Assembly: GCA_051599415.1 (NCBI GenBank)
Contig: AP039700.1
Location: 62,001-126,000, forward strand
Length of the DNA: 64,000 bases
DNA from: Savitreella phatthalungensis
Lineage: Eukaryota
Reading direction: 5' to 3'
In this document: positions 21,187 to 56,852 of the stretch, piece after piece
Layout: each line of letters starts with the position of its first letter
Position numbering within the stretch: position 1 is the stretch's first letter
Notes under the pieces: generated by a model
What the model was told of the DNA's origin: nothing
The model's input: only the letters and a program-made list of their open reading frames with translations
Databases searched by the model: none
Program-made: the position numbers and the translations under genes

Positions 21187-23983
21187 TCACAGACCTCGGA
21201 CGACTATTGGCCACATCTCAGAATGCCACTCAGAGGCGTATGAGCTCGAATTCAGGGCCAAAGGCATGATTGCATGCATTATGAGCAGCCAGGATAGTGG
21301 CAAATTGGCTGTGATAGTGGCAATGCGGTCAATTGGTCGCGCGAAGTATGCAAAGTAGATTTGCATCAATGCCAACAGGACGCACGTAGCGTAAACGTAC
21401 TTGAAGTCACGCCAGATGCGCGGTAATTCGGTGAGGAAGTCGCTCTGTTCAAGTGTCTTGACAGTAGCTCCCCAGCTGATATCCTGTTAGAATCGTTAGT
21501 TAGCCAAATGATGTATACCGCATGCGAAGACTGTTGTACCAAGGTAAACATATGTGCGATGAGAGCATACGAAAGATGCATCGACAGACCGCCCAAGAAG
21601 ATCACGAGAGGGATCGACCATTTCAAATTCTCATACAATGCTCGCCAGAATCCTTGCCAACGGGCGCGATATTTGCTGGCTGCGTTGGAGATTGGGCCGA
21701 GGACGTTGAAGACCAAGAGAACTGAAACAAATACACCGAACCCTTCATTGAAGAACGCGTATGACTGTGACGTGAAGTACAGGTACCAGCCAATGACGAA
21801 GTAATTGACTATAAGCAAAGGCCAAGCAGCAATAGCATAATAAGTGCCAATGTACGAGACCATTGTGAACTTCGAGAAGGAATTCAGATCTGACTTCAGA
21901 AAAGAAATGAAGATGTCGGTGAACGGTCCTTGTCTTGGCCACTTGCTGAAAGGATTGAACACGAGCTCCGAGCACCCGTATGCATACTTTGACCATCGAA
22001 GGAGCTCATCGTAGCAAGTCAACGAAACACCTTCCTCGAAACCCTCTTCGGAATATGTTGCATATCGTGAAATATAGCCTTTGGTCAGTGGTATGAACCA
22101 GAGTGCAATAGAACATGCCAAACTCACCCTTAGTCTGCAACTTGAGCGACATCTCGAAGTCTTCAGACACATGTTCTTCCGACCAGTATTTCAATTTGCC
22201 ATCGACAGGGTCCCGCTTTGCGATCTCTTGCAATGCACTCCATCGAAGAAACGCATTGTGACCAACGAAAGCTGCTGTGTCTCCAGAAGCAGTCGCCCAC
22301 TGCAAGGAGAAATAGATGCACCGCGTAAAATACGCTGCAATTGTCAGTCAAAGTGTGCGTGACAGCGTTTCGAAGCTTACTGATAGCATTTTCCCAGAAA
22401 TCATGAACGACCTGCATCACGCCGGACTGATGCTGAAGTATGGCGACTTGTGGCGAGCGACCGAATTCACCTGACGCAATTGAGTCAGTGAATAGCTCTC
22501 AAATTGAGACCGACTCGAAGGTGTTACCTGCTGCGTCGAGAAAGCAATCCTCCGGAACTCGCGTGTCACTATCTATTAGCAAAATTATTTCTCCCATCTT
22601 GATAGCGCCTGCGGCCCATGCAATGTGGCCAGATTGTGCTTTGACCTCATCGATCGATTCTTGAAGTGATTGTTCGATAAGACGGGCTTCATCCTCCGCA
22701 GACCAGCCCGCGGATCGCCTGGAAACGCCGCGTAATCGCAATTCGACTCGATTTGACAAGTCCATTGCGAAATTCATGTTCGATGCCTTCTTGAACCGAC
22801 CTGCCCGTACAAATCCATCATGTCCATGGCCCGGACGGGCTACCCAGCCAATGTGATTTCGACGATAGAACTCTTTGCGCAGCTCACGTTCGTCGTCCTT
22901 GATGAGCTGTAAGCCATCATCATTGATGAATATAGATGCTGTGCCACCTTGTCGCTCATAAGTGGCGATCGCTCGCTGCAGACTATGAACAGTGGGCATG
23001 ATAACATCCGATAGACCTTCCTTGTAAACCGGGCATTGAACGGTGATATGCGGAAGCGGCCCTTCAAAGCGCAACGGCCGCCTGCAGGAGTAGAACTTGC
23101 TGTCCTGGAAGAGTTGATTGATCGGCCCAACAAAATTAATGACGGAGACAATAAGCATGAGGGAGAAGAAGCTCGTCATGAGGAAGAGAAAAGGGAAGTA
23201 AGTGACGAACCCAAGGCGAAAATAGGTTTTGCTTCTCAAAGACTCATAGACGATCGTCCTCGTAGCTAAAGATATGATGAAAAAGTTCAAGAGAATGGTG
23301 CAAAAGACCATGACAGGCAGAAGAATCTGTACCGGTCGCTCAACTTGACTGCTCGCTGCAGCACTGGTACAGGAAGCTTCGGCAGGTCCAGTCTTTGTGT
23401 GCGTCTTTCCTGCATTGATGAACGACGCAACACACTTTTCCGTTTCCCGAATGAGCATGCACATCTGATTGAAGTCTTCGCCCCAAACGAATAATTTCCC
23501 GTTGAGATAGGCTAATTGCTGGTAACGCCTACAGTGGAGAGCATCTTGGATGTCGTTCCATATCTGAATATGAAGATCGTCCTTGAGGGCCAGGTCAGAC
23601 AAGACCAGCTTCTGCTCGCGCATTTGTTCTTCATAATCCCGTAGGAGTGCTGAGTTGATGACAAGACAAATGGAGACATTCAAACCAGCGGCCACGGATA
23701 TGTGATCGCATGCAGAATGTGCGTTACTGCACATATAGCCTCGCTCTTTCCGGACGACAACGGCGCAGCAATCTTCGGGCGTAATCCAATCGCGCGACAT
23801 GCATGTTTCGCCTATATGTGTTAGCATGCTGGAATAGACATCTTTCCACGGCGGACTAGTCATTTGGTCCAAGTCCTCTTTAGCTTTCTTCACTAATTGA
23901 CCTTGTGATAGGCCGGCGGGCTCGCTACGGTTGCCTTTCTCTGCATCGTGGTCCGATGAGGACGTTTTTTTCAAGAATTTCAT
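21187..23983 (-). CDS. Membrane GT2-family glycosyltransferase, paralog A; exons 23983-22528, 22470-22381, 22334-22128, 22078-21540, 21483-21187
   Basis: ITVQCPVYKE, DDG, FKKASNMN, LLIDSDTRVPEDC, GHNAFLR, HVSEDF, ELLRWSKYAYG and multiple TM helices. Four GT-AG introns (22527-22471, 22380-22335, 22127-22079, 21539-21484) with CTGAC/CTAAC branch sites join the pieces in frame. Confidence 0.9.
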
Positions 23984-24426
23984 CAGTCCACGAGGTGCCT
24001 CAGCGCTTGACCTTTACGTCGGAAAACACAATAAGGCGGCCGCTGACTACTAGATAGTACCTCATGTCTTGTGTCAAAGGTGTCCAAGACTCTTGTAGCC
24101 ACCGTGGCACATCATTGATCGATCACTTTCAAAATTGCGACTAGCTGTCTTTGTTCGTGACGACCATTGTCTTAATTTTATATGTGATAATTCATTTGAT
24201 CGACTCGTGCTGCGAATCTGTTGATACGCTGCAGTGGCGACTTTACGTCCCGCGACCACATCATGGCCTGGAGTATGCATTTCGCCTCTTTGGAACTTAC
24301 ATACAGTAGGTACGCGCCACCATTTCGTGACTGATCATGATCTCGAAGAGACGAATACTATTTGCTGCAATGCTTCGTCGATAATTCAATCTTAGAGTGT
24401 GCGGGTGATGCTTCCGGGAAACTGGG

Positions 24427-25578
24427 CTACACTAACTGCCACATTCTCACAGATCGTATCTGCAAAGACGGAGATGACCAACTCGTTCGCCAACTCGAGT
24501 TTGCAGCGTAGAAAGACCGCATGGCAGGTTGTATGTCCATTGAATTGGACCAAGGCTTTGCCGCGACATCAGCAAAAATGCCACTGAGGCCGCCTGCGTT
24601 GATCCGCATGACAAGCTGAAATGGTACGTCGAAAGGTGCAGCCAGAGTCCCATTGCCCCATGGGTTCATAAAGTGATTGACACGTGGGTCATCGCGATTG
24701 TAGTGAACAATGTTCCAAAATCCAAGCGGCCATGTGTAATGCAGCATGATATTTGAAGGACGGTCGAGATATGTGATCACAGAGTCAGATGTCCACTGGA
24801 CGCCAAATGTATGGAAGGTCTGACTAAAGTCTCTGCCGTGACTTTGAATTGTGTTGCGCGCTTTGTAGTTGTTATCGCCCGCGACTTGCCCTGCCGCTCC
24901 AAAATGCAGCATCGTATCGAGCTTGTCTGTGCCGCCGGACTTGTATCCGGGCGCATTACCACGGACTTGGGCAATGTCGATTCGACCGGAGCCTGGGAAT
25001 TGTCCGTAGACAAGATCGGCAGGTTCGAGTGATATGGTGGAATAGAGCCAATCTGCGCGTGGAAATTTTGCCTCGACCTCGACTCGACCGAACGTGATAC
25101 TGCGCATTGTCCGCAATCTCGCGGTGTTGATCTGTGGCACAGCATCTGTTTCATTTGCGAATGCTACGCAGTCGGCTCGCAACTTGGATGTGCACGCGGA
25201 TCCCAGATCTACAGTCGCGCCAGCCATGTTCACAGGTTCCAATGTCGGTCGTAGATGCAACGTGCCACTTTGAACAAAAGCATTCAGAGCTGTCGAACGA
25301 TCAAAAGTCGCTTCGTGTTGCCCACGGAAAAATTGCTCTTGCTGCCACTCACTGTTCGCCAGACTGTGGAAGTGATCCTCGAATACAAGATGAAAACGGC
25401 GGTGATTTGAAGTGAGAGTGACCGTTAATGCCATCGCCACCAGCCACAGCGAGCCGACCAGCATGCCTGACCATACAATCCAGCGCGAACGTTTCAGATC
25501 CTTTGCTGTTCTGCGGTTGATGGAAACTACCTCGCGGCTGAGCCAGCCTGGTTGAGCAGGCTTTTTAAAGCCAGACAT
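24427..25578 (-). CDS. Membrane-anchored GH16 (laminarinase/beta-glucan-binding-protein-like), catalytically degenerate
   Basis: N-terminal TM (WIVWSGMLVGSLWLVAMAL), LVFEDHF, TARLRT..FGRVEVEAKFP, FHTFGVQWT, APFDVPF, IRSVRMWQ. The active-site motif reads SGRIDIAQ instead of SGEIDIxE. Confidence 0.88.
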   Translation of the reverse strand: MSGFKKPAQPGWLSREVVSINRRTAKDLKRSRWIVWSGMLVGSLWLVAMALTVTLTSNHRRFHLVFEDHFHSLANSEWQQEQFFRGQHEATFDRSTALNAFVQSGTLHLRPTLEPVNMAGATVDLGSACTSKLRADCVAFANETDAVPQINTARLRTMRSITFGRVEVEAKFPRADWLYSTISLEPADLVYGQFPGSGRIDIAQVRGNAPGYKSGGTDKLDTMLHFGAAGQVAGDNNYKARNTIQSHGRDFSQTFHTFGVQWTSDSVITYLDRPSNIMLHYTWPLGFWNIVHYNRDDPRVNHFMNPWGNGTLAAPFDVPFQLVMRINAGGLSGIFADVAAKPWSNSMDIQPAMRSFYAANSSWRTSWSSPSLQIRSVRMWQLV

Positions 25579-25879
25579 GCTTCTTGCGCGACTACCTGAA
25601 TATGAATATTACCAGATCTCGAGAGCAGCATTCCGCATGACCGCGTCGATGCTTGCTCTTGGAAACGTGCTGTACGTAAGACGATAGTGTGCCCCAAGGC
25701 GACTATCAAGGGCTGTATCGAAAATTTTGGGACAAAGTCTTTGTCTGACGATGCCATTGTTTTTACTGACGATGACATGTGATAAAACGAGCCTAAGACA
25801 ATTCATCATTTATGCTCCATGATTTCTCGATCAGAGCTCCTCCGTGTCCGTTCAGCTACTCAACAGAAGCATATCGGGT

Positions 25880-28256
25880 ATGGCTAGGTCAAACGATGAT
25901 GCGATTTTCCTTCGTCACACTCTCCAGTACGGATTACGCGAGCAATGGTTTGAACCGGAGTTGAAGGCCGTCGACAGCCAGATGTGCCTGATAGCGCTGA
26001 AGAATGCTACAGGTGAAATATTGACAAACGAGAATGTAGTCGATGAGCTTGTGGCTCTATTGTGTGCCTCAGATCAGTCAGTGATGGTTCGCTTGTTTAA
26101 CGCCAGTATTCGTCGCTTCATACGCTCACGTCAACCATTCGAACGGTCGGTCCAACTAGGCTGTTGGGGCACGTGCACGATCTTTGACGGGTGGAATGAT
26201 ATCGGAGAAGAATACGTCGCGAAACACGGCCTTGCTTTACTGCGAAGTGGATCGATTCTGGTATGGTGTTCGGATCCAGTTGACATTTTCGATACGGCCC
26301 AATCAGTACTTCGACTCGTGCTAGATTGTGTTCATGGAGAGCGGAAAGAATTCCACAAAGATCAGCTGGTCGAGCATGTGGAAGAACTTTTGGAGGATGA
26401 CGATCTTGGCCTTGACGGCACTGATTCCTGGAACGAGAGACCGGTACGGTGGATATGGTCTGTTATCGTTGGGCTGACCTTCACGCTGATAGGAGGGTCC
26501 TGGGGGGTAATACTGAGCGCTCTCTTACGTGTTGTCCTTATGGATCGATCGTGGTCTCAACTTCTTTACCTCTTCTACTTTCCATTTTCGGGATTCCTAT
26601 CGAGTTTCCTGATCTCCGTCATCGTCCTCGGCTGTTTCCAATGCTTTGGACCGATTTCCCATCTATCTCAGAACAGTCGCACTTACTCAGGCCAAAAGCC
26701 GCAAATTCGCCTTGCGGCATCGGATCTGCCACATATTACGATTCAATGCCCGGTATATCGGGAAGATTTGCAAAGCGTGCTTGAGCCGACATTTAAATCT
26801 GTTCAACGTGCCATTGCGACATACGAAAGCCAGGGCGGCTCGGCCAGAATTGTGATATACGACGACGGACTGCAGATCCTAGCCAATGAGGCACGTACTG
26901 AGCGTGAGCAATATTACACTCAACACGACATTGCTTGGATTGCTCGCCCTCCACACAACAAGGATGGATTTGTGCGGGCGGGGGCTTTCAAGAAAGCAAG
27001 TAATCTCAACTTCGGGATGAACTTCGCTGCTCAGACGCACGATCTTGGACGTGTCCCGGAAACTGATTACGTGGTCTCCCATGGTGGTAATTTTCTGCTT
27101 GGACCGATCATACTGCTAATTGATGCGGACACGCGGATCCCGGAAGACTGCTTCCTCGACGCAGTCAAAGAATTCGCAGAATCACCGGAAGTGGCAATTT
27201 TGCAGCACCCAAGCGGTGTTCTGCGCGTCATGAATAACTACTGGGAAAATGCACTGGCGCATTTCACCCAAAATAATTATTTCAGCACACGCTATATCGT
27301 AGCCGCTGGCGATGCGACGCCTTTCTTCGGCCACAACGCTTTCCTGCGTTCTGAAGCCATTGACAGTCTTGCCGTGACGGACAGCGACGGGACACGTCGC
27401 TGGTGGTCGGAGCGCCATGTAAGTGAGGACTTTGAGATGGCGCTCAAGCTGCAATCGACAGGCTATATTTTACGTATGGCTGGCTACTCAAACTACGATT
27501 TCAAGGAAGGCGTGTGTTTGTCCGTCTACGACGAAATCAGCCGCTGGGAAAAGTATGCATACGGGATCTCTGAGTTAGTCTTTCGACCGATCCGACAGTG
27601 GCATCACGGCCCGTTGACGCCTCTATTCTGTCAGTTCATCTCATCCTCGAGCGATCTTAGCGCAAAGTGTTCGTCACTCTTTTATATGGGAACATACTTC
27701 GGCCTCGCCTATGCTTGGCCGTTCAGCTTGCTGAACTACATCGCCTTGGGGTTCTGGCGTGAGGAAATCGGCAGCTATTTTGTCTCTGCGCCTGCAGATT
27801 CTAATCAGCGTGACGGTGATCTTCGGGCTGAAAGATGCTGTTGTCGGTACGCTGGTACAATATCGCTTAGGCGAGACGAGCTTGTGGCGCGGGCTTGCAA
27901 ATTCTATTCGAGCATTGTGCGTGACCACTCTGTTCTTCCAGGGACTCAGTCTCCACGTGGCCGGTTGTATGCTGCGTCATCTCTTAGGCCTACCCATGTC
28001 CTGGGGCGCAACGGCCAAATCGGCCACTCGGACGACTTTGCGAGCTGACATCGCCCTCTTCCTGAACCGGTACAAGTATATCTACGCAATGAACAGCGTA
28101 GTGCTTGTAGCGATCGTTTTGAACGGCGTGGCAACGCCACCGGCGTGGCGAGTCACATCATTTGCGGCGGTCTTTCCTCTGGCGTGGCAAGTTGTATGCC
28201 ACACACTGATGCCGCTCGTGCTGAACAATAGGTCAATTCTGAATGAACTGGGGTAG
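25880..28256 (+). pseudogene. GT2-family glycosyltransferase, paralog B; intronless, with a +1 frameshift at about 27791 (pseudogene or sequencing error)
   Basis: ITIQCPVYRE, FKKASNLN, LLIDADTRIPEDC, HVSEDF, EISRWEKYAYG. Homology to paralog C continues in another frame (LQILISV...FFQGLSLHV...SWGATAK...MPLVLN) after TCT GCG [C] CTG CAG. Confidence 0.8.
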
Positions 28257-28271
28257 TCATTGATAAGCTCA

Positions 28272-29171
28272 TTAAACGGCTCGCATGGGAACCTTTCGCC
28301 TGACGCTTGACATGATTTCGTCTCTTTTATAGTCGTTATCGTAATCAGAAAATCCGACAGGGTCGGCAGCGCTATCGAGGTCGGCCATCGGTGCACCGAC
28401 GAGTCGATCTAGATCGGAGCGTGATGACTTGGTCACTCGGTCGCGTGACAAAGATGTACTGCAATTGCCTTCGTGCTCGCGACTGATGTGTTTGCGCAGA
28501 GTCACAGCATGAGCAAAACGCCGACCACATTGTGTACAGGCGTGCAAACGCTTGCCATCATGTTTGATTGTGACGTGCTTGGCTAATGCATAAGCTTTCG
28601 TGTACCTTTTGCAACATCCGTCGTACGTGCATGTAAACACTTTGCGACTGTCGAGTGGGCGTTCGTGCAAAAGCTCATGTTCCCTCAATTGACGGGACTC
28701 GGGAAAGACACGTCCACAGGACCGACAAGAAGGCTTGTGATCGACGCGCTGATGTCGCAGTAGTTCCTGTCTGAGTCGAAAGCTTGCATCACATCGAGCA
28801 CAAAAATGACGGAGTTGCACATTGTGTACCTGCTTGATATGCCGCGTCAGGGCAGACGGAAAATCGAAAGTCTTATTGCATTGTGAGCACGCGTGAGCAC
28901 GCTTTCCATTGTGCTCAGACTCTAAATGAACTTTGCGCAACGAGTGCTTCGCAAATGACCGATGGCAGTCTGGACAGGGATATTTTGCGTGTGTAGATTC
29001 GTGGGCAGTCCTGTGCTGTTCGCTGTTGAATCGACGATTGCAGCCGCCAATGCGACACTCGAGCACACGTTCGAACTCCGCTTTGTGACCGGCCTCATGC
29101 GCGTCCAGGCGGGACTGATACGTGAATGTTTTCGGGCACCCTGGGTATGCGCAGCTTAGCCGCTGCGTCAT
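28272..29171 (-). CDS. C2H2 zinc-finger protein with 8 fingers, TFIIIA-like
   Basis: Eight CxxC/CxxxxC...H...H repeats. The RKVFTCTYDGC...KHVTIKHDG finger and the C-terminal LDRLVG resemble fungal TFIIIA (Pzf1/Sfc2). Orthology is inferred. Confidence 0.75.
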   Translation of the reverse strand: MTQRLSCAYPGCPKTFTYQSRLDAHEAGHKAEFERVLECRIGGCNRRFNSEQHRTAHESTHAKYPCPDCHRSFAKHSLRKVHLESEHNGKRAHACSQCNKTFDFPSALTRHIKQVHNVQLRHFCARCDASFRLRQELLRHQRVDHKPSCRSCGRVFPESRQLREHELLHERPLDSRKVFTCTYDGCCKRYTKAYALAKHVTIKHDGKRLHACTQCGRRFAHAVTLRKHISREHEGNCSTSLSRDRVTKSSRSDLDRLVGAPMADLDSAADPVGFSDYDNDYKRDEIMSSVRRKVPMRAV

Positions 29172-29650
29172 CGATCATATATTGACCGCTGCATAGGACT
29201 GCACGTACTTTTGTTCTACGGATCGTGTTTGTCCGTGCACGCAAAGCCTTTTCTGAATATGTGCGTGCGCATGATAAACTTGCCATTTATACAACAAAAG
29301 GTAAATTAAAATCAGCGAGCCGTGCAACTCGAGGGACACTCTGAATGCACAGAGGACTTGCGCACGCGCCTCATCAAGGACAAAGGCTTTCTGATCAGTC
29401 ATCATGAATTTTCGAAGCTTCGACGCACCGGCGTCGCCCACGGCTACGTGAACAGTACTAGCGAAATGAAATTGTCAGCATAGAATTTGTAGGTCGTCAC
29501 AGCTCGGGCTAGTGGTGAACGGCTATACTCAGGCAATCGAAGGACATCAGCTGAGAGAGCCGCTGTGGTCTCCACGGTTGTCGTAGACGCGAGGGCGACT
29601 GCCGGCGCATTCTAGGCATTCTGAGCTCAACAGCCGGAGTGCGATTGCCC

Positions 29651-32600
29651 TTAAGCACTGATATATTTGGCGAGATCGACCGTAAGACTCCGGGACGAAT
29701 TCATAGCCGAGTCTCTGTAAATGCCGACCAGACCGTCAGACTTATGAAACAATTTGTTTTTCAGACTTATGACCAGGAACTGGAGCTTGTCACCAGCATT
29801 TGCCTGGATGTAGTTCGCGATGCGTTCGACGTTGGCGTTGTCAAGCGCCGCATCGACTTCATCGAGCACGAAGAATGGCGACGGCGAATAATTGTGTACA
29901 GCGAAGAGTAAGGCAAGTGCGGCCATTGTTTTTTCGCCGCCACTTAGCTGATCCATGTCCCGGAAGCGTTTCATTGGTGGCATGGCGTGATACTTCACGC
30001 CGGCCAGATAAGGCTCATCAGAATCCTCGAGGCTCATATGAGCGGTGCCACCTATAGGTACCGCAGAGCTGCGAGTCAAGCTCTTGTACACTTCGTCGAT
30101 CGAGCCTGCAATGTGCTCATAGGCAGCATTGAAGAGCTGCAGACGCTTGCGCTTTACAGCGTTGAATTGCTCCTTTGCCAGTTTGACCGCCCGACGACTG
30201 GCGTCAAAATCGCGCTCGGTCTCTGAGTGGCGAAGCTCGACGCCCTGCAGCCGCTCGATGGCGCGAAGATTCGGCCGCAGTCGTTCAAGCTCAAGATCTA
30301 CGTCCTGCAGCTTTTGCTCCAAACGATTACCAGTCTCCTCGTCGGGCTCTCTGTAATTGTCATCTAGCTCCTCATAGTCGATCTGCAATGCCCAGCTCTC
30401 GATCATGTCGTTCAGGGATTGCTGCCGACTGCCTGTTTGTTCAAGGGGCACGGCGTCCAGGGAGCCACGTAGAAGTGGCAAATTGATCTCCTCAAGCTTA
30501 CATCTTTTCAAGATGGCATGAGCATTGTTGAGGCTCTTGGCGATAGCGGTCTCAAGATTGCTGGCTCGACTCAAGACCTGGTCCAGTTCGGAAGCCTTGT
30601 CAAAAGAGCTCCTGCGCGCGACGTCGACATTCACAGACCGTTCGTCAAGTGTTTGTGTCGCACGCGTCACTGCTGACTTCGCCTCCGCAAGCTCATTTTC
30701 GGCATGATGAACTCCATCGAGAAGAAGGTCGCGCTGTGCTTGCGTGTCTCGAAGCGCGGTTTCGTCACGGAGGTGCATATCTCGCAGTTTGGCGAGCCGG
30801 CTGGTTGTTTCCTCTCGCTTGAGTTGCTCGAACGAGAGAGAGTTCTCTAGCCGAGATCGATGAGCGGCGAACGTAGCGCGCTGTCTAGCAGCTTCTTGCC
30901 GTAGCTGCCCTTGAGAGCTTTCGTAATCTTGTATCGAAGAGAGACTCAGACGCGCACAGAAGTCACGAAAAAGGTCATTTTCGCGCGCAGTGACAACAGC
31001 GAGGACCTGATCGACGGTCCTGTCGACGGCGCTTTTCCGCTGCTGGACAGCGGCGAGGTCTGTTTGTGCAGTTTCCTCTAATGCAGCGATTTGCTCCCGG
31101 AGCCCATCGACTATGCGGCCTGCCGCGTCTCGATCTCGTTGGACAATCTGCAAGCGTGCGCGGATCGCATCGACCTCTAGCGCCGAAACGGTAGTCTCAG
31201 CAAGCTGCCGGCGTTTCTTCGTTAGCGTACTGAGTTGGCTCATCAGCGAATCCTGAACTCGTCGGAGTCCTTCAACGTCGGCCATTGATACGGAGGAAGT
31301 GGACGTTGTCCGCGGAGTCTGACCGCCAGTCAGATTGCCTGATTTGTGGATAATAGTGCCTTCAACAGTGATGACCTTCACGCCTATTCTGCGAGTGTAG
31401 GCCAGCTCACGGGCCTCCTCAAGTGTGTCACAGATCAGAGTGTCGCCGCATGCGTATTGTACAGCTCGCTCGATTGCTGCTGAATAGTGCAAGCAATTGA
31501 TAGCAAGCCTAGCATTCTTCCCGATACTGAGCAGCTCTGCCCTGAGGGGCTTCGGTGCAAGCGTATCCAAGGGTAAGAAGGTCGCTACGCCTGTCTGCTG
31601 CTCGCGCATGTACTCAATACAGTCGCGCGCAGTTTTCTCGGTGTCAACGATAAAGCTGTCCAGGTTTCGCCCCAAGGCTAGCTGGATGGCTGCATCATGT
31701 CTGCTTTGTGTTGCTTTGACGAGCTCGACTACGCGTCCCCGCACGCCGGGGAAGATGTTCCTGAGAGAGATGCCGAGGGCACGCATACGACCTTCCTTTT
31801 TCGTTTCGGCTTCTAGCGCACCGAGGTCGGCAAGCTCTTCCAAAGTCTCGCGCAACTTGTCGTTCAGATCAAGCTCTTGACGCTCCAGAGAGCTGCGTTC
31901 GTCTGCAATTTTCTGCGCGCGAGCCACGACGTCATTAAGCTCAGCTGAAGCGCCTTGTACATTCTCTTCCTGAGCATGAAGCTGCGCTATTGCAGCCTGG
32001 AGCGAGTCCTGCAAGGCCTGCCGGTGCATTTGCTCATCATGCGCGCGTTGCTGTAGGCTCGCAATTTGTTCTCCAAGGATGCGCTGGCGCTGGCGCTGGC
32101 CGTCCAATTGCTCCTTTTCTGCTGCAAGTGCCTTGTCGGCTTGGTCACGTAAACCACGGTACGCATCGTAGTCGGCATCAGACAGATCTGTCGTCTGGCG
32201 ATCCTTCATTTGTTGCTCGAAACGCGCTTCCGCAACGTGCAGTCGATCGAGATCGCGCTCGTACTCACTGATCTTGTTGTCAGCAAGCTCATGCTCCAAT
32301 TCGCGGATCTTGCGGTTTTGAGAGAACATAGCCTTCTGCAGAGCGGCCATTCGCTCTTCCGCGGCATCGATCTTCGGTAGCTGTTCACTTCTCGCGTCTT
32401 CGCGCTCTCTCACAGTCTGCTTAGCCTTACGCACAGCTTTCAGGGCCCGGAGGTGTTCCTGCTCAGCTCTTTTGAGCTCTGCATCCACACTGTCGAGTCC
32501 ACGTCTGGAATCGTCTGCCTCTGTATACCGAGCACGCAACTTAGAGCGGTCTTCTTCAATCTGAACGTCGATTCGTTTGAGCTTCCACAATATCTGTTGT

Positions 32601-33250: not shown

Positions 33251-33482
33251 GACTGCTGTCCGGAGTCTTCTTTGGCCGCGAGCTTGCCCGTAAGTCCCTC
33301 TTGCTCTGGTGCGACGATCGCGGGCAGCTCTGCGAGACACGAAGCCCCTGTGTTCTTCAAGGGCGAGCACTTCGTGACAAGCTATTCTTATTTTGGCCGA
33401 TGGTCGATATGAACGCGTAGCCAATTCTAATAATGAGATGACAGTCAGACAAAAGGTAAATTCACAAAAAGTCGCGATTTTG

Positions 33483-33950: not shown

Positions 33951-34266
33951 TCCGGCGAGTATGCAGCATCAATGGAAAGAATCTCGACGTTGTTTCGCGA
34001 AGCCGTAGCTGCTGACGGCCAGAGGCACCAAAAGTCGGAAAGTTAGATTGAGCCCGCCGGAGTTCCGGCATCGAGCCGTGAGGACGGACCTGAAGCAAGG
34101 CGCACAAACGGTGGGACACAGGCAAGCATAAGCTGGCCGAGCAGGACGCTGGCATAGCTATCAGACGCGGATGCAGAGATAGTGTTGACCGAAGAAGACG
34201 AGACGCGCATCCTGTAAGTGATAAAGGCACGGTTGACTGTCTTCGCCAAAAGAGAAGACTCAAACT

Positions 34267-35826
34267 ATGGCTTCAGTAGTCCAATTCGACGACATCTACC
34301 TGAACCTGGGAAGCGAGAGAGGCAAGCTCCGGCTGAACGAGAGCGGCTTGGGGTGGAAATGCGCAAGTCAGTCCACACCGTTCACAGTGCCCACGAGCGA
34401 CATTCGCCAAGCGATTTGGCAGCGTGCTAGCAGAGATCACGCAGTGAAACTTTATCTCAAAGGCGGCGATACAATTACGCTTGATCATTTCCGAGAGGAC
34501 GACTTTGATGCCATCGCATCGGCTGTGCGCGACAAGCTCAAGCTAAGTCTGAACAAGCGTGAGATGTCTTTACGAGGTTGGAACTGGGGCAAAGCACAGG
34601 TCAAAGGATCTGAATTGCAATTCGACGTCAACAGCACACCTGCCTTCGATGTGCCGCTCAAACACGTCTCCAACACCAATTTGACAGGAAAGAACGAGGT
34701 TGCTATCGAATTCAATCTTCCTGACGATGGATCTGCTGCCGATGTCGACCAGCTTTCCGAAATGCGCTTGTATGTACCTGGAGATGGCAAGGAGGAGGAC
34801 TCTTCCGGCGAAGAGCAGGACGATGCGCCACGTGAGACAGCAGCCCAATTATTGCACGCCCGCTTGAAGGAGACAGCCGACGTTGGAGATGTCGCTGGCG
34901 ACGTCATTGCCTCTTTCGCGGATGTCGCTATTTTAACACCTCGTGGGCGTTACGAGATCGACCTTTTTGAGAACTCGATGCGAATGCGCGGTAAGACGTA
35001 CGACTACAAGGTTCAGTACAGCGCAATTCAGCAGCTCTTTGTCCTTCCCAAGAACGACGACTTGCACAATATTCTCGTGATCGGACTCGATCCGCCGATG
35101 CGTCAAGGACAAACGCGCTACCCATATGTTGTGCTGCAGTTCCCTCGGGAAGAGGAAATGGAGGTCGAGCTAAACGCAAATGATAGCTTGCTTGCCAAAC
35201 ACGATAAGCTGCAGAAGACCTATGATGCGCCAGCGCACGATGTGGTCAGTCAAGTGCTTCGCGGCCTATGTGGTAAGAAGATCACGGTCACCTCGTCCTT
35301 TCAGACGGTGGCAGGACATCCCTGCCTCAAGTGTAACAACAAAGCAAACGAAGGCGCCTTGTATTTGCTCGAACGCAGCGTACTGTTCGTCGTCAAGCCG
35401 ACTATCTTCATCGCATACTCGGAAGTCCTTCACGTGACTTTTTCGCGCGTTGCTGCATCAGCTAGCAAAACCTTCGATCTCACGTTCAAGCTGCGCAATG
35501 GTCAGGATCAGCAATTCACCTCCATCAACCGTGATGAACAGCAGGTGGTCGAGGACTTCCTCAAAGCACGTAATCTCAAATTGCGGAATGACATGCAGGA
35601 GGAAGCGGCACTAATTACCGCCGCCCTAGGGGTGGACTCTAGCGACGACGAAGACGTCCCCGCTATTCGTGGCGACAGTGGAGATGAAGGCGAGGAGTCA
35701 CCAGACGAGGACTTTGTCGATGGCGATGACGATTCCGAAGACGATCTCGAGTACAATTCGGATGCAGCCATGAGCGACGGCGATGGTGACGCAGAGGAGC
35801 CACCAAAAAAGAAGCGTAAGGATTGA
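34267..35826 (+). CDS. POB3: FACT complex subunit Pob3/SSRP1
   Basis: SLRGWNWG, GKNEVAIEF, LTPRGRYEID, LDPPMRQGQTRYP, acidic tail with NLS PPKKKRK, and no HMG box. Confidence 0.96.
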   Translation: MASVVQFDDIYLNLGSERGKLRLNESGLGWKCASQSTPFTVPTSDIRQAIWQRASRDHAVKLYLKGGDTITLDHFREDDFDAIASAVRDKLKLSLNKREMSLRGWNWGKAQVKGSELQFDVNSTPAFDVPLKHVSNTNLTGKNEVAIEFNLPDDGSAADVDQLSEMRLYVPGDGKEEDSSGEEQDDAPRETAAQLLHARLKETADVGDVAGDVIASFADVAILTPRGRYEIDLFENSMRMRGKTYDYKVQYSAIQQLFVLPKNDDLHNILVIGLDPPMRQGQTRYPYVVLQFPREEEMEVELNANDSLLAKHDKLQKTYDAPAHDVVSQVLRGLCGKKITVTSSFQTVAGHPCLKCNNKANEGALYLLERSVLFVVKPTIFIAYSEVLHVTFSRVAASASKTFDLTFKLRNGQDQQFTSINRDEQQVVEDFLKARNLKLRNDMQEEAALITAALGVDSSDDEDVPAIRGDSGDEGEESPDEDFVDGDDDSEDDLEYNSDAAMSDGDGDAEEPPKKKRKD

Positions 35827-36139: not shown

Positions 36140-38434
36140 GGGTCTCACAGAGGACAGTCGCAAGGTCTCGGGGGAACAACAGAATCGACGCAAATACGGC
36201 AGACAAAGCAAGTTCAACCATAGGGTCGAGTCACACTGACTGGCTTTGTACAAGTTATGCGCATCGCCGTCACTTCTGCAACCAATGGTGGATGGTGACA
36301 TAGCCGCAGCTCTGTGAGCCAGGCTCTGCGAGGGAGATTGTTCTTGCGCTAGATACTGATCATATGCCATTTGCGTCCATATGCTGCATTTGTCATGACC
36401 GGTCAAGTCGTCTGGGCTGCTCGTATTCAATTTTACGCGATGCTGTCACTTCTGCAATCACTCAGTACTCTCTATGACCAGACTGTGGGCCCGTATGGAG
36501 CTGGCAAGTTGTATTGTTCTGTGCTAGGTTCTGGTGGTGGTGATATCTTGCTCACTGTCTGTATACAGCGTGCTCTGTCCTCTTATGCCTAGGTCCATAT
36601 GCAATCTGCCATGTCAACAGAGTCAAGACATGTATCAGCTAAAGCATCTGTACGGGTTGGGGCTGCTGACTTGATTCAATGTCTCATAGTCCTCCTGTTT
36701 CTATTTGTACTTTCTTGCAGACATTTGTGTCGCGGAGGACAATCGCAGAACCCAAGAGCGACAAACAAAGCAATCCAGACATGAACCAGACAGCACAGAA
36801 GGAAGGACCCAGACAGAGTCTGACAGGGGACACAGATGTCGCGGAGGACGGCCGCAGGACCCCAGAGCGACGGACGAAGCGACACAGACACGAGCCAGAC
36901 GACACAGGAGGACACAGACGGAGGCCACTGAGGAACACGGAGAGACACAAACAAGCACAAACAGATACAGAGGGACTACAAGGGACGGTCTTGGTGGTGA
37001 CACTGACCATGCTATAACTGATACATAACACAACTCTGCAAACGTGGCAGGTTGATAGGGGGCTACAAGAGGATGCAACACACCATAGGGAGACAGCGTG
37101 CCAGATATCACCAATACCAGGACCTAGCACAGGTCAATACTATTTGACAGCTCCATGAGGGGCTACTATTGTGTCATATGTAGACCAAGTGATTGCAGAA
37201 GTGATGGCATTGTGTACAAACCGTATACAATCAACTTGGACCACAGAGTGGTCGCGACAACTATCTTGTCATACATAGACTCAAGGATTGCAGAAGTGAC
37301 AGCAATGTGTATGGATTGTATACAATTGACCTGGACAACTTAGCGGTCGCAACATTTGGGTCACAAGCTGCATGACCGTGACAGTGTGCTCTGCATTTAG
37401 TTTTGACAAGCGACCAAGCGAATATCGATGATTTCGCACAGCAACAGAGTGAACGAGCAGTTACAGCGGTCGCGCTGGTTTTACGCGGCTGACATGTTGT
37501 TTACATGGCTGACAAGAAGTTCGAAGTCGGTTCGAGACGCAGCATATTCACTTCATTCTTGAATTCCATGACGAAAGTAATAACAACGTCAAACATTGTG
37601 TCTCCCGGTTGGATATGCAAAATGTTCTCCTTTAACGATTGGCAAATTCTGATAGGAATCATCTACCTTTTGGCATATTCTTAATATCTCCGGTCCAGAA
37701 TCGCTGATTCTGACATTTCGTAATCTCGAGCGACGCCGCTGCGGAAAGTCGCTAAGGCCAAGAAGCACGCGAAAAGGTCATTTAGACACATGTGTCAGAA
37801 TGCAGAGACATTGCTTCAACAACTCATGAAGAGAATAAAGAGAAGTCCTCAAGAGTCCTGAGTCTATTGGCCAGCATAGTTCCTAAAGGCGCCATTGTGA
37901 CGGACAATTCCACATTGCTCTGTCGAAAATCCGTGAGCACGTCAGTACACTATAAGGTGGGCGTCGCGGGGACAGTCGTAAGATCTGATGCCGATGCATC
38001 AAGCAACACGGACTCAAAACAGACAACACAGGACGACTGACATAGAGCTCACTGGACAACTCAAATGGACACAAATTTTCCCGACGGCTCGGTCCTCCAG
38101 GTAGATTATATACAATCCGTACACAACGCCCTCACTTCTGCAATCACTGGGTCTATGTATGACAAGAAAATAGCCCTGTATGGAACTGTTGGATAATATT
38201 GTTCTGTGCTGACTCCTGGGGTTGATGGAATTTTGCACGCTGCCCTTATATGGCTTGCTGTGTGTCCTTGTACTCAGGCCGACTTGCCATGTCAGCAGAG
38301 TTGTGGTATGTATGAGTTATGGCATGGTTTGGCACCACTATCTAGACTGGCCTCTCCTGTAGTCCTTCTATTATGTTTGTACTTGTTTGTGCACATCTGT
38401 GCCTGTCTGTTGATGCGGCCACTCCATGGCCCGG
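36140..38434. repeat. Degenerate copies of the same repeat family around and inside the inverted repeat
   Basis: Core TCACTTCTGCAA at 36270(+), 36446(+), 37193(-), 37288(-), 38132(+), 38466(+). Motif GTCGCGGAGGAC-like at 36144, 36729, 36838, 37963 (+) and 38821 (-). Copies of about 300 bp at roughly 36430-36725 and 38095-38430. Confidence 0.85.
36835..37235 (+). repeat. Left arm of a 401-bp perfect inverted repeat
   Basis: Reverse complement of 38435-38835 with no mismatches seen; paired coordinates sum to 75670 throughout. Spurious ORFs on opposite strands (36684-37130 minus, 38540-38860 plus) translate identically over the shared part. Confidence 0.95.
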
Positions 38435-38835
38435 GTTGATTGTATACGGTTTGTACACAATGCCATCACTTCTGCAATCACTTGGTCTACATATGACACA
38501 ATAGTAGCCCCTCATGGAGCTGTCAAATAGTATTGACCTGTGCTAGGTCCTGGTATTGGTGATATCTGGCACGCTGTCTCCCTATGGTGTGTTGCATCCT
38601 CTTGTAGCCCCCTATCAACCTGCCACGTTTGCAGAGTTGTGTTATGTATCAGTTATAGCATGGTCAGTGTCACCACCAAGACCGTCCCTTGTAGTCCCTC
38701 TGTATCTGTTTGTGCTTGTTTGTGTCTCTCCGTGTTCCTCAGTGGCCTCCGTCTGTGTCCTCCTGTGTCGTCTGGCTCGTGTCTGTGTCGCTTCGTCCGT
38801 CGCTCTGGGGTCCTGCGGCCGTCCTCCGCGACATC
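38435..38835 (-). repeat. Right arm of a 401-bp perfect inverted repeat
   Basis: gttgattgtatacgg...gtcctccgcgacatc is the reverse complement of gatgtcgcggaggac...ccgtatacaatcaac. Confidence 0.95.
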
Positions 38836-40007
38836 GAGTCAGTCTTCCAGTGTTCCCTGACTTGAGCATGTGTCATTTGTCCCTCACTCTTGGATCTTGC
38901 GACCGTCCTACGTAACGTGTGGCTGCTCATAGCAGGGACATTTGACCCACGGCGCTCTGTATTGAAAATAGTGGCATACTATCGGATGCAGCATGCTCTG
39001 CGTCCTCTTTTTGCCAGCTATCGGTTTCGCCACATGAGGAGACTCGATTGCTGTTTCGAATTTTGCCCTGCCGCAGGTATCAGGCATACTGTAGTGTTCC
39101 AAGAGGCAGGCTCCACTGTGTTGATCAGATCCGGGAGCAGCTGTCTTATGTGTGATACATGCCTTACTTCGCCCAATTCACATGCTAAGATTGCGATCAC
39201 GTGATAGGCTGCGTTACCTGCGACTAGCCGTAAACAAAGCAGGTTAGCTGCATAGGCCCCGATAGGCCAGAGGGACATAACCTGGAGCTCATCAAGAGAG
39301 ACACATGTCGCAAGTGGTCACAGAAGACGACAATAGTCGGACGTCATGCACAGAATTTGATCTGAAAGGGCGCTATGGAAGATGCAGTACATGCTAAAAA
39401 TACAGCATGGCCAAATGCAAACAGCGCGCCCGATCCCACTATAATCGGAGCGTTAGGTGCCACGGTCTTATCTGCATGCTATTGACGACACCAAACAAAG
39501 GGTACAAACGTCTGGGATATAGTAGTCAGTCACTGCGGAAGCGACGGTGGACGCATGCAATTGCAGACGCAAGGCCAGAGTGACCAGATTCGTTTTAAGG
39601 ACTTGGCCCGCTCTGCGTCCGCGGTGCTATACGTCCAGCACTCGGACTTTAGAAATCGCGCTTCGCGAGACAACGGCAATTTCAAGATATCGATGCAAAA
39701 AAACGAAGTATCACGATATACGTTGTGTGCTACAATACTTACCTAGTCGTCGAACTTTGTTTGTGGCGCAGCGAACGCAGAGTGTACCTACGGGTACGCA
39801 AACTAGCGCGCGCAATCGCGCTAGCACGATTGCCCAAAAATGGCAATAGACTTACGATTTTGACCCACTCATGGATGCAAAACGATTAGTGATCCATGAG
39901 CTTCAAAGTAGCGATGTTCGTGTATGCGCCACGATATTGCAAGCGAGTTTGACGCAAGTGCGCGGTCGGGAGTTGAGACGTTCGTACCTAGTCGCAAGTC
40001 CACGATG

Positions 40008-42658
40008 TCACATCCGGATCTCTGACAGGAAAGATTGTGGATTAAGAATCAGCGGCATCAATGCGTGACAGAGGAGCACCCATCCAAGAGGCAGACTTGC
40101 GAACACTGAAGGCACTGTCCGCCATGCAATCGGGGCAAATGGCGTGCTCAGAATCAAAGCCGCCACTCCGAAGAAACCGAGAATGGCGTACATCCATCGA
40201 AATCTTTGCCATATGTGCGGGATTTCGCGCCAAAAATGCGACTCCTCCAGCACCTTGGCAGTCGAGCCCCAAGAGATTGGGATCGAGAGAAGGTGCCACA
40301 CCAGAGCCTGGCTCACATGTAGCGAGAGTCCTCCGAAAAAAATGCTTAAGACAGCAATATTCTTGTAGTTGTCGACAATCGCGCTGACAGGTGAAGCACC
40401 GCGGCGCCAATTATGAACGGCATTTGCGAATGGAACGGCCACATCGAACAGAACCAGAACAGCAATGATCACTTGGAACGCCGACTGATAGAGTCTGGTA
40501 AGCTTGACATTGTACCAAGACACGAGAAAGAAGTTGAGAATGGCTAAGATCCACTGTGACCCAATCGCATAATAACTGCCCATGTATGCCAACGTTGTGA
40601 ATTTAGAGCTGAGAGGTATGTTCGAGCGGACGTAGCGCCGAAATAACGGAGTGAAGGGACCTCGCGTGGGCCAGTATTTTATTGGGTGAAACACAAGCTC
40701 AGAAACACCATATGCGTATTTTTGCCATCTGTCGACCTCGTCGTATAGTGTCAACGAAACCCCCTCACGGAACCCGTCCACGTATGTCGCGAGACGGACA
40801 ACGTATCCCATGTCCTGCAATTGCATGGATATTTCAAAATCTTCTGAGACATGCCCCTCCGACCATGGCGCTGCCCCTAATCGCATCAAGGCTGCCGTTC
40901 TCAAGAAAGCGTTGTGTCCGATGAATGGCGCCACATCGCCGCCTGCAGTCATGTACATCATCCCGTCGCTGACAAATTGCGTGAAGAAAGCCATTGTATC
41001 CTCCCAATAATTGTGCACGACTTGAAAAGCGAGCGAGTAATGCTGTAAAATCGCAAGTTCGGGCGATGCATCGAACTCTAGAGCGGCGGCTAGTAGGCAA
41101 TCTTCCGGTATTCGGGTATCGGCATCAATCAGAAGGATAATGTCGCCAAGTCTCACGTCTCCTTCTCCCATAGACTGTGGATGGCGCTCAAGAAGCACTG
41201 CATCGAGGCTCGATTGCAGGAGAATCTTTTCATGAATTCCGGGAGATTCATTGGCCTGCACACGCAAGCGCTGCGCGAGCGATTGTGCGATGCCAAGGCA
41301 AAAATTCTACCACGTCAACATCGAACCAAAAAGCTCAGGATTGCTGAATACCATATTTGAGGCCTTCTTGAAGCGTCCGGCACGTGCGAAGGAATCGGAA
41401 CTCGCGGGCCTAGCCACCCACGCAATATCTTGATGTCGATAAAAGTCGCGTCGCTTCAGCGCCTCTCCGGGCGAAATGACGGCCATGCCATCGTCGTTGA
41501 CGAAAAGCTGAGCCGTTCCTCCCTGCTTCTCATATGTTCGGATCGCGCTTTGGACAGACGCAAACGCAGGAATCAGGACGTCCTCGAGAGGCTCTTTGTA
41601 GACGGGACACTGAATTGTCACGCTGTGAATATTAGTATAGGCTCTCGGTCTGCAGACATAGGAATATAGGTCACGTACAGTGGCAGCTTAATTTTCCGTG
41701 CTTCTGGAACCTGCCCAGAGTAGAAGCGGCTGTTTCCTTTGAGGTGAGAAATAGGCCCAACGAGCTTCAAAATCGTGATACAGACAGTCTGCGCAAAGAA
41801 AGCGGAGAGCCATGCCACGATTGGCCAGTAGAGTAGGATGAGCATAGCGGCATAGTTGCTGTCAGCCTTGATCTCGAGTATTATTTCGTGAACATCCTGT
41901 CCCCAGAATGTGGCGATGATCAGAACGCTCAGGGCTGTTGATAGTGGCGTGAGCAGAGCCAAGCCACGGCGTGAAACTACACTTTCTTTCTTTTCATCCG
42001 CGAAGCTGTTCACGTTGATCGTCTTATTGAAGTAGGCTCGGACCAGCCGATTCTCTAGGCCACGTCCGTTTGAGATCAGATCGGATGCATTTTCAGCCCA
42101 GATAAGGACAGAGCCATGCTCTCGCACGAAAACGCTACCAGACGCTATCCGTAGTTCGTGGATATCTTCGTAGCTTTCCAGAACTTGGATCTGAAGGTCA
42201 TCATCGATATAAAGCGTTCGTACTCCAGGTGAAACATCAGCAAGTATTGCACGCGTCAAGACGTTGCAAAGCTCGGCAAGACAGAAACACTGGATATATC
42301 CGGCGATATCTGCGAGGTCGATCGAGTCATCGTGAGATGATGCAGAGAGAGATTCAGAGCTCTGGTGAGGTGCTGAGAGATAGCTCGCCTCCAGCCCTGA
42401 CTCTCGAATGACAACACGTGTGGCGTCCGGTCTGCCTGGATCTTCGAACCAGCCATCAGCCCGTGCATTGCGATATATGTACCTTAGTAGGAGCTCTTGA
42501 CGAGTATGCATTGTTTCATCGGCTTCGATTTCGAGATCGAATTCGGAGCAGTCCTGTTTGTCACCTGCGACAGACTCGCTGAGCTCGACGAAGGACAGCT
42601 CTGCCACATGTCTCTCAGATGCTGTCGCTTTTCGCCACTCGTGAGGCGGCCAACGCAT
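40008..42658 (-). CDS. Membrane GT2-family glycosyltransferase, paralog C; exons 42658-41679, 41622-41352, 41306-40008
   Basis: VTIQCPVYKE, FKKASNMN, LLIDADTRIPEDC, GHNAFLR, HVSEDF, EVDRWQKYAYG, FFGGLSLHV, SWGSTAK. Introns 41678-41623 and 41351-41307 restore the frame. Exact start codon is uncertain. Confidence 0.9.
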
Positions 42659-43005
42659 CACAACTATCGAGACAGTAGGCGACTCCTTTTTTCGTCTGTG
42701 AACTGCGCTGAGCGCACACGTTTTTCAGGGACTCTGTGGAAGTAGCAAGGTGCGCTCATGTGTCATGATCAGGGAACTTGTACACGAGGCCGATCGACGC
42801 AGACTTCATCTCCGAGGGAAGATGGACCTTGGTCAGACTATCTGTCGATGCGTCCGGCTCATTGAATGAACTTATATTCCCTTCCTGAGATGTTATGTGA
42901 TTGGACAGCAAGCCGCTTTCAACATAAAAACCATTGTCTAGAAACACGGCAAGGCGTGTGAGGCAAGACCTCAAAAATCTTACATGGACGGTACAAATAG
43001 TCGTC

Positions 43006-43045
43006 ACGATGTGGTATTGTTGAGACGATGTGGTATTGTTGAGAC
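43006..43045. repeat. Perfect 19-bp tandem duplication (ACGATGTGGTATTGTTGAG x2)
   Basis: Read directly; it ends 12 bp upstream of the first ATG of the GH16 gene. Confidence 0.9.
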
Positions 43046-43057
43046 AGTGGCATATTC

Positions 43058-44338
43058 ATGGTACGTCGCAAGTTGCGTCTGCTGCAGGGAGGCTCGATGT
43101 CTGATCAGGAGGAAGCCCTCTTATTTGAATCTCAGCAGCCCAGGCTCGCTCGAGAGCGGCAACATCAATTTGCCAAATGGCTTGAACGATTTCTCCCACG
43201 AATTGGTCTTGTGCTCTCGCTAGCAGTGCTGGCAGCATTCGGTATTACAGGTTGGCATGCATGGGAGTCAAATCACTTCTGCCTCGTCCTGGATGACGAC
43301 TTCATGGAATTCAACAGCGCTGTCTGGCTCCGAGAGAGTGAGCTGGGAGGATTTGGTACAGGCGAATTCGAATGGACAACAACTACTGACGAGAATTCTT
43401 TCGTCAAAGACGGTCGGCTGCATCTCTTGCCTTCGATCGATCCATTCTGGCCACCTCCAGATGGTACGGTACTCAATCTAACCTCCACGAATCAATGTAC
43501 CTCCATCGAGACAGGAGAGAGTCGGGAAAGGGCTTGTATCAGGACGCAAAACCTGACCACGAACTCGATTATACCCCCGCTACGAAGTGCTAGGCTGTCG
43601 ACACGGCTCTCGAGCAATATTAAATACGGACGTGTCGAAGTGAGAGCCAAATTGCCGATCGGCGATTGGCTTTGGCCGGCAATATGGATGATGCCGGTAA
43701 ACAGTACCTATGGAGGCTGGCCTCGCTCAGGTGAAATCGACATCCTCGAGTCTCGGGGAAACGGTATCGAGTACCGCGCCGTCAATGCACAGAATCAGGA
43801 ATTCCCGGGCGGCCACAACACAGCTTTCTCGACCTTGCATTGGGGTCCTGGCACACCATTTATTTGGGACGCATATCTGAAGACGACGAATGGCCTGACC
43901 TGGCCTTCCGGTAGTGACAGTCTCACTGATAGTTTTCACACTTTCGGGCTCGAATGGACACCTCGATCGATACACACGTATATTGACAGAAAATTGACGA
44001 GACTTGCTTACTTCCCATTTCCGACGCTCGGGTTCTGGGCTCATGGCCAATTCGACGAATATGCGACTGGGCTTGTCAATCCATGGGTCGGCGCGACCGG
44101 TCACGCACCATTTGACCAGGCTTTCTACCTTATCATCAATCTAGCCGTCGGAGCGACCAACGGATACTTCAAGACCAAGCCCGGCGTTCTCCCATGGGAT
44201 CCAGCTTCGCGGTCATCAGCTATGCAGGAGTTCATGGCATCTAAGGAGAAATGGCTTCCATCGTGGAAGCCGCAGACACTAGCATTTCAGATCGACCGAG
44301 TCAGGATGTGGAAGTTGTGCACGATAGATAGGCAATAA
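43058..44338 (+). CDS. Membrane-anchored GH16 beta-glucanase/transglycosylase (laminarinase-like), catalytic motif intact
   Basis: N-terminal TM, GGFGTGEFEWTT, SARLST..KYGRVEVRAKLPIGDWLWPAIWMMP, WPRSGEIDILESRGN, FHTFGLEWT, APFDQAFYLIINLAVG. The start may be 43097 (MSDQEE). Confidence 0.93.
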   Translation: MVRRKLRLLQGGSMSDQEEALLFESQQPRLARERQHQFAKWLERFLPRIGLVLSLAVLAAFGITGWHAWESNHFCLVLDDDFMEFNSAVWLRESELGGFGTGEFEWTTTTDENSFVKDGRLHLLPSIDPFWPPPDGTVLNLTSTNQCTSIETGESRERACIRTQNLTTNSIIPPLRSARLSTRLSSNIKYGRVEVRAKLPIGDWLWPAIWMMPVNSTYGGWPRSGEIDILESRGNGIEYRAVNAQNQEFPGGHNTAFSTLHWGPGTPFIWDAYLKTTNGLTWPSGSDSLTDSFHTFGLEWTPRSIHTYIDRKLTRLAYFPFPTLGFWAHGQFDEYATGLVNPWVGATGHAPFDQAFYLIINLAVGATNGYFKTKPGVLPWDPASRSSAMQEFMASKEKWLPSWKPQTLAFQIDRVRMWKLCTIDRQ

Positions 44339-47537: not shown

Positions 47538-47539
47538 TT

Positions 47540-56274: not shown

Positions 56275-56852
<578 letters not shown>

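Follow-up and report, generated by a model that had tools for sequence, protein, structure and literature searches.

A twice-occurring cluster of BcsA-like GT2 synthase genes and anchored GH16 genes in Savitreella phatthalungensis, a candidate Fks-independent glucan system

What does a fungus make with three membrane glycosyltransferases whose genes lie beside those of two membrane-anchored glycoside hydrolases? This question is raised by a stretch of 64,000 nucleotides from Savitreella phatthalungensis (the window; GenBank assembly GCA_051599415.1, AP039700.1, here contig C12, positions 62001-126000), part of a gene-dense fungal genome of 12.7 Mb in 27 contigs. Among the matches listed in a similarity search, the nearest named relatives of the window proteins are Taphrinomycete. 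The genes in question are three of glycosyltransferase family 2 (GT2-A, GT2-B and GT2-C) and two of glycoside hydrolase family 16 (GH16-1 and GH16-2). With slightly more belief than doubt, we favour an explanation in which an Fks-independent processive GT2 and an anchored GH16 make and trim a glucan containing beta-1,3 links, in the manner of the Bgs3-Ghs2 pair of Schizosaccharomyces pombe or the bacterial pair BcsA-BcsZ.

All five genes lie where a preliminary description of the window had placed them. GT2-A (21187..23983, minus strand) encodes 862 amino acids in five exons (23983-22528, 22470-22381, 22334-22128, 22078-21540 and 21483-21187) separated by four GT-AG introns of 46-57 nt. GT2-C (40008..42658, minus strand) encodes 849 amino acids in three exons (42658-41679, 41622-41352 and 41306-40008) with canonical GT-AG splicing. 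Both are open frames when spliced, and both join a DUF7928 head to a membrane GT2 synthase. GT2-B (25880..28256, plus strand) is a single-exon gene with intact catalytic motifs and a frameshift near 27790. The earlier count of three GT2 genes stands in that PF13632 is matched in all of them, and fails in that GT2-B is not one open frame. DUF7928 (PF25550) is likewise matched in all three, the GT2-B match falling below the Pfam cut-off (E 0.00085). GH16-1 (24427..25578, minus strand, 383 amino acids) and GH16-2 (43058..44338, plus strand, 426 amino acids) are single exons, each with a PF00722 match. The window GT2s share 35-39% identity among themselves, and the two GH16s share 34%. GH16-1 and GT2-B diverge from an interval of 301 bp (25579..25879), and GT2-C and GH16-2 from one of 399 bp (42659..43057), as described before in round figures.

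The motifs DDG, KKASN, DxD, SED and ExxRW are found in all three window GT2s. Across 127 aligned relatives the positions of DDG, KKxxN, DxD, GH, SED and ExxRW are invariant or nearly so; D531, E631, D632 and E667 are the same in 127/127 rows. The ExxRW columns, which stand in the same place as QxxRW, hold E in 127/127 relatives, R or K in 127/127 and W in 100/127. The motif set expected for a processive GT2 is therefore present for D, DxD and SED, and differs in its last member, ExxRW in place of QxxRW. The fold was modelled on a single-exon paralogue identical to a gene on contig C13 (P0008; predicted local distance difference test score, pLDDT, 87.6). In VIA the model is matched best by BcsA (Z 20.8, root-mean-square deviation, rmsd, 4.0, 395 residues aligned, over residues 289-902), and Foldseek agrees on a BcsA-type fold. 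Membrane helices flank the glycosyltransferase domain on both sides, which is the BcsA arrangement, according to the model and hydropathy. Fks1, CesA, hyaluronan synthase and CslF6 score lower (Z 15.8-17.5), so the model indicates that these GT2s are built as processive, membrane-integrated synthases, as the motifs also had suggested, yet neither the sugar nor its linkage follows from the fold. When P0019, another protein identical to a C13 gene, was compared as a single sequence with solved structures, only chance membrane matches came up.

The head of these proteins has a different relationship. When the GT2-C head (41990..42532, minus strand) was folded alone (pLDDT 89.5, the final residues of the fragment aligning poorly), the top 15 rows of a search over 48,161 chains all belonged to the class II aldolase family (Z 9.7-13.4). 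The best match was 2irp_B (Z 13.4, rmsd 3.5, 157 aligned), and unrelated rows reached at most Z 4.6. Foldseek agrees, with an adducin-containing entry among its matches. Active class II aldolases carry a metal-binding histidine triad, and members of the class II aldolase/adducin family form tetramers. The triad was not found in the DUF7928 head, and because no column is at least 50% histidine over 96 rows, the head is probably non-catalytic and adducin-like. In its modelled fold it resembles the adducin head and the aldolases of the FucA family, at an identity of 7-15%; it differs from them in the missing conserved triad and in being fused to a membrane GT2. By analogy with the tetramers of that family, the head may have a role in oligomerisation.

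Sequence comparison places the window GT2s in a widespread fungal family with a BcsA-like fold, outside the Tft1/CelA group. Of 7999 candidates scored in a family search, at least 1171 are related at E<=1e-10, and the 120 relatives listed include Pezizomycotina, Taphrinomycotina, Lipomyces, the mucoromycete Bifiguratus and a chytrid. Atlas leads for the family are clusters dominated by basidiomycetes, diatoms and bacteria. Relatives that have no head were found at 49 bacterial loci, by a scan with a profile of head-less relatives, and at nine viral-contig loci; a GTDB scan with a single sequence, P0071, which is fungal in the tree, was empty. In the open-access literature we found no functional study of GT2s that combine DUF7928 with PF13632, and no description of the named GT2-GH16 pair.

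The GH16 partners are one apparently active and one apparently dead enzyme. Each has one N-terminal hydrophobic segment by hydropathy (residues 34-52 in GH16-1 and 45-63 in GH16-2). This agrees with the type II membrane proteins proposed earlier as far as the segment goes, and the C-terminus would then lie outside. GH16-2 has an intact EIDILE motif and WPAIW, and among solved structures it is laminarinases and beta-1,3(4)-glucanases that come closest to it (best E 6e-19). The E-D-E pattern is retained in 103/103 aligned relatives. In GH16-1 the motif reads RIDIAQ, with both catalytic glutamates replaced. Because the same loss is found in its relatives P0423 (55% identical) and P0424 (39%), GH16-1 appears to be an old pseudo-enzyme and not a case of recent decay. 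The idea of a synthase with a trimming module fits GH16-2, the motif of which is intact, and is qualified by the pseudo-enzyme GH16-1 and the frameshifted GT2-B. In Pfam comparisons the Kre6-type domain PF03935 is absent from both window GH16s and the Fks domain PF02364 (GT48) from all window proteins. The one PF03935 match of the genome is on contig C14 and its one PF02364 match on C10, and the presence of Fks and Kre6 genes elsewhere in the genome agrees with the Fks-independence proposed for this locus. Two more anchored GH16s with intact catalytic motifs are encoded on contig C5 (664973-666349 and 679832-681079), and the tree places them beside a Parajaminaea protein (support 85).

Is the neighbourhood of GT2 and GH16 a peculiarity of this genome? 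The check proposed at the outset, GT2-GH16 adjacency across fungi, shows a linkage that is conserved across Ascomycota. Among species present in both the GT2 and the GH16 hit lists, leaving aside three proteins identical to C13 genes (P0008, P0019 and P0134), consecutive accessions or locus tags were found in five of seven named fungi: Lipomyces orientalis (KAK9324902/901), Venturia (RDI79848/849), Protomyces (ORY80976/975), Caeruleum (M1817_001201/202) and Scytalidium (B7463_g5182/5181). A second set came from metagenomes, using the best 80 of 140 confirmed matches to a Fusarium query, which fall into 56 groups when clustered at 90% DNA identity. The upstream flank extends for 4.9 kb or more in 22 groups, and 14 of these have a GH16 gene upstream of the GT2 gene (12 tandem, 2 divergent); on the downstream side the count is 0/16. 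These counts overstate independence because the loci are related; with grouping at 80% the numbers are 4/6 and 0/5. No conserved third gene was seen between GH16 and GT2 in the 24 of 80 metagenome loci examined. A published report of GH16 gene pairs, as far as its accessible part goes, describes 12 pairs in eight fungal species, including Coprinopsis, Clavispora, Botrytis and Fusarium, in which a GH16 of the same kind is paired with an unnamed gene. This partner would be a DUF7928 GT2, and the Fusarium-like metagenome loci are mostly tandem.

Expression data for putative pairs of this kind exist in two other fungi. In Neurospora crassa, the available part of PMC6796803 lists the GT2s ncu09906 and ncu04167 and the GH16s NCU09904 and NCU04168, and gives both GT2s as upregulated in perithecia. 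The annotation name of NCU09904 is also that of the GH16-2 homologue in N. crassa, so that NCU09904 and NCU09906 are putative orthologues by name only. In the portion of the PMC4330645 supplement at hand, NCU09904 and NCU09906 stand in consecutive rows and co-vary over seven conditions (log r 0.96), and the accessible text of 10.1101/2025.04.07.647663 has NCU09906 raised under phosphate starvation. In Epichloe, EfM3.080040 (GT2) and EfM3.080050 (GH16), assigned to their families by annotation, are consecutive and both up in stroma, according to the part of PMC6921078 available.

The same genome holds a second set of these genes. Contig C13 has three GT2s and two GH16s at 197.5-214.1 kb, one GH16 being intact and the other without the catalytic motif. 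In a tree of 69 rows, GT2-A pairs with C13-204k, GT2-B with C13-200k and GT2-C with C13-210k, each with support 100, and reciprocal best BLAST matches agree (53%, 36% and 45% identity, respectively). In a tree of 35 rows the dead GH16s pair together (99), as do the active ones (98). Both are FastTree trees with Shimodaira-Hasegawa-like support, a method that joins long branches readily, which calls for caution over the pseudo-GH16 clade. Protomyces and Taphrina proteins fall into both cluster copies, and their accessions are clustered (ORY80971/75/76 and ORY82425/29; CCG84105/07). For these reasons the duplication of the five-gene set is placed before the split of Protomyces and Taphrina from this lineage. 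Six of the six GT2s of this family found in the genome, and four of the six GH16s of this type, sit in the two clusters, so that the clustering exceeds chance. In either copy GT2-C stands opposite the active GH16, head-to-head on C13 as in the window; the dead GH16 faces GT2-B in the window but the GT2-A paralogue on C13. What is conserved is thus the set of five genes. Repeated head-to-head modules, which the preliminary description had taken as the unit, are not: the pairing of GT2-B with GH16-1 is not kept on C13, and 12 of the 14 metagenome pairs are tandem. The heptamer AGACAAT occurs once in each of six upstream intervals (window 24166, 25796 and 42933; C13 200602, 204857 and 212092). 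As a regulatory site it was rejected, a shared 7-mer being reached in 12 of 300 shuffles and in 32 of 500 random real sets.

Several known systems allow comparison. By the features tested, the window genes look like a synthase-remodeller-like module that is neither Tft1, nor Fks, nor Kre6. In S. pombe, Ghs2 and Bgs3 form a synthase-remodeller complex in which binding of Ghs2 has been demonstrated (PMC13612389, as far as its accessible part shows). There too a multi-pass glucan synthase works with a single-pass GH16 that has an EXDXXE motif. However, Bgs3 is of the GT48/Fks type and Ghs2 of the Kre6 type, whereas the window has a GT2 and a laminarinase-like GH16 without PF03935, with synthase and GH16 genes as neighbours and one GH16 catalytically dead.

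Bacterial synthase operons such as that of BcsA and BcsZ commonly carry their own hydrolase. The window shares with them a glycosidase gene alongside the synthase gene, the nearest solved fold (Z 18-21) and the order D, DxD, xED, xxxRW. It differs from BcsA in identity (~15-18%), in having SED and ExxRW for TED and QxxRW, and in the added aldolase-fold head; in place of BcsZ the hydrolase partner is an anchored GH16.

Tft1 of Aspergillus fumigatus and CelA of A. nidulans, linked to mixed-linkage glucan, are likewise fungal multi-pass GT2s outside Fks. From the parts of the sources available, Tft1 was identified by BLAST with CslF/H (bioRxiv 10.64898/2026.09.17.752320; PMC4344333), and CelA-like proteins contain a cellulose synthase domain (PMC4059230). 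The window family has no match to PF03552 at E<=0.01 and the genome has none either, so the earlier analogy with Tft1 is unsupported as kinship. Nor does the family profile match CslF6 at E<=1, Tft1 itself being compared by description only.

Fold, motifs, gene linkage and paralogy rest on observation. The mechanism that we build on them goes further, with an inferred substrate, type of linkage, location, binding and life stage. The GT2 would add glucose from uridine diphosphate glucose in the cytosol and push the growing chain through its own membrane channel, exporting a beta-glucan with 1,3 links. At the channel exit the active GH16 would cut the chain to length or graft it by transglycosylation, and the dead GH16 may bind or guide it. 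The aldolase-fold head would regulate or oligomerise the synthase. This lineage keeps three GT2 subtypes, an active GH16 and a dead one in both of the old cluster copies, and the window carries the faster-changing copy, with its frameshifted GT2-B. Some fungal wall or secreted glucan fractions have no synthase assigned, and drugs directed at Fks are not expected to affect a GT2 route. With the conserved GH16 partner the product hypothesis becomes concrete, and means of testing it are at hand (expression in K. phaffii as for Tft1, and N. crassa deletions); because the two-gene pairing recurs in many fungi, the product can be tested directly. For GT2 complexes, a polysaccharide synthase headed by a pseudo-aldolase and accompanied by a conserved pseudo-GH16 would be a novel design.

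A number of observations weigh against this proposal. In the literature consulted, no biochemical or genetic result links the DUF7928-GT2 family to any product, and the N. crassa GH16 deletion mutants grow normally in the accessible part of PMC6796803. The listed proteins of Exophiala and Saitoella (two of the seven named fungi) are not consecutive, and 8 of the 22 metagenome groups have no GH16 within the flank, although a flank of 6 kb may miss a partner. No GT2 lies within 655-686 kb of the two GH16s on C5, and only 1 of the 58 bacterial and viral GT2 loci has a GH16 in the flank covered. The correlation of the N. crassa pair lacks specificity, as unlinked pairs among four straw-induced genes reach r 0.75-0.88 in the available part of PMC4330645. 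As for the fold, Fks1, plant CesA, hyaluronan synthase and non-processive GT2s reach Z 16-17.5, and the top Foldseek TMq (0.41) belongs to a cyclic glucan synthase.

The last of these bears on the best surviving alternative, that a processive GT2 does work with a GH16 partner but makes something other than a beta-1,3-type wall glucan: perhaps a glucan with beta-1,6 or beta-1,2 links, an oligoglucan that is short or cyclic, or a polymer built from a different sugar. The fold is almost equally near to several synthase classes; an OpgH-named cluster scores 0.93 by features, and a Protomyces member has been named automatically as glucans biosynthesis glucosyltransferase H. The anchored GH16s Kre6 and Ghs2 serve 1,6-branching, according to the part of PMC13612389 available. 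The partner here is however laminarinase-like and has no PF03935 match, and N. crassa, reportedly without beta-1,6-glucan in the accessible text of PMC6796803, still has the GH16 orthologue. We regard a different product as possible, if rather unlikely.

A bolder form of the favoured glucan explanation would make this a third kingdom-wide fungal beta-glucan route besides Fks and Tft1. The adducin-like head would assemble GT2 oligomers docked to the anchored GH16, and in Taphrinomycetes a hetero-oligomer of three distinct synthase subunits with an active and a dead GH16 would have arisen, its five genes staying together as a set through the old duplication. The proposed three-subunit synthase would resemble the three-isoform cellulose synthase complexes of plants. 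We put this forward tentatively, as an idea that is unlikely in its full extent.

Another possibility is that the genes are co-regulated neighbours within one pathway but no working unit, the GH16 remodelling beta-1,3-glucan made by Fks and the GT2 making, for example, a glycolipid or a protein-linked glycan. Orientation and spacing do vary (12 tandem, 2 divergent, gaps of ~1.2-5.7 kb), 57 of the 58 bacterial and viral loci have no GH16, and in fungi many divergently arranged genes are retained as pairs although no functional connection between them is known (PMC2871058 Table 1, as far as available). Against mere neighbourhood, GT2 and GH16 stay together from Taphrinomycotina and Lipomyces through to Pezizomycotina even where their orientation has changed, and the two families have expanded together, the conserved dead GH16 included. 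We consider this a doubtful explanation.

The weakest alternative is that the window cluster is a decaying duplicate beside a centromere and only the C13 copy functions, which the frameshift in GT2-B, the longer end branches of the window GT2s (0.62, 1.01 and 0.77, against 0.21, 0.36 and 0.13 in the C13 paralogues) and the probable antisense spliced RNA across GT2-B might suggest, but which is very improbable when GT2-A, GT2-C and both GH16s are open, their introns are canonical, the motif change of GH16-1 is common to orthologues at 55% and 39% identity, and window-type genes are retained in Protomyces and Taphrina.

GT2-B itself is probably a pseudogene in this isolate, judging from its sequence. 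Homology runs unbroken across the shift near 27790; the unshifted frame ends at 28048, short of ~155 C-terminal residues. An intron as the cause was considered and none was seen in a three-frame view. Its end branch is 1.01 compared with 0.21-0.28 in its orthologues (FastTree). Contigs of runs X1 and X2, both from one sample that may be the source of this DNA, match the assembly at the shift with no gap; contig pieces of two independent runs do not span the site. The X2 contigs (labelled 'DNA?') skip 26068-26123 and 27623-27697, which read as canonical introns on the minus strand (GTATG...CTGAC...AG). The skipped stretches point to spliced RNA running antisense to GT2-B, in which no ATG frame exceeds 78 amino acids; the contigs carry no information on strand or level.

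Outside the synthase system, between the two halves of the cluster, which are 11,751 bp apart, lies an open reading frame-poor repeat cluster (36200..38900) that is a candidate regional centromere by its sequence. Arms of 427 nt (36835-37261 and 38409-38835, 98% identical) are inverted around a core of 1147 nt. In the best 150 of 202 matches, the ~420-nt unit is found on all 27 contigs, essentially at one locus of 1-10 kb each, with a weak second site on C17 among the matches listed. Subtelomeric or long terminal repeat (LTR) clusters are a rival explanation, several clusters being within ~7 kb of a contig end, and one repeat copy starts with TGTCGCG and ends with CGCGACA in the manner of a solo LTR. 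No centromere study of Taphrina or Protomyces appeared among the papers that a literature search listed. On C10 the repeat cluster (244.6-247.0 kb) and the single Fks match of the genome (248164-250632) are ~1 kb apart, much like GT2-C and the cluster on C12.

In clostridial relatives of the GT2 (L122, L132 and others) the protein also includes a protein kinase and DUF5050 as fusion partners, and the gene is preceded by a conserved one of ~430 amino acids without a Pfam match and with a weak GH88-named lead. At seven loci (L109, L111, L112, L121, L148, L152 and L157), in genomes of Omnitrophota, Elusimicrobia, Endomicrobia and Planctomycetia, the GT2 domain lies within reading frames of 1700 to >4300 amino acids. 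Nine viral contigs (L158-L166) have head-less members, four of them labelled as metagenome-assembled genomes of giant viruses.

The remaining genes of the window are ordinary. Besides the repeat cluster, the halves of the synthase cluster are separated by a C2H2 zinc-finger gene, an SMC gene and a POB3/SSRP1 gene. These three belong to the flanks (28272-35826 and 44424-63952), which further carry genes for a bZIP protein, a leucine-rich repeat exonuclease, trehalose-phosphate synthase/phosphatase, COG6, a short-chain dehydrogenase, an AAA ATPase and TsaD/Kae1.

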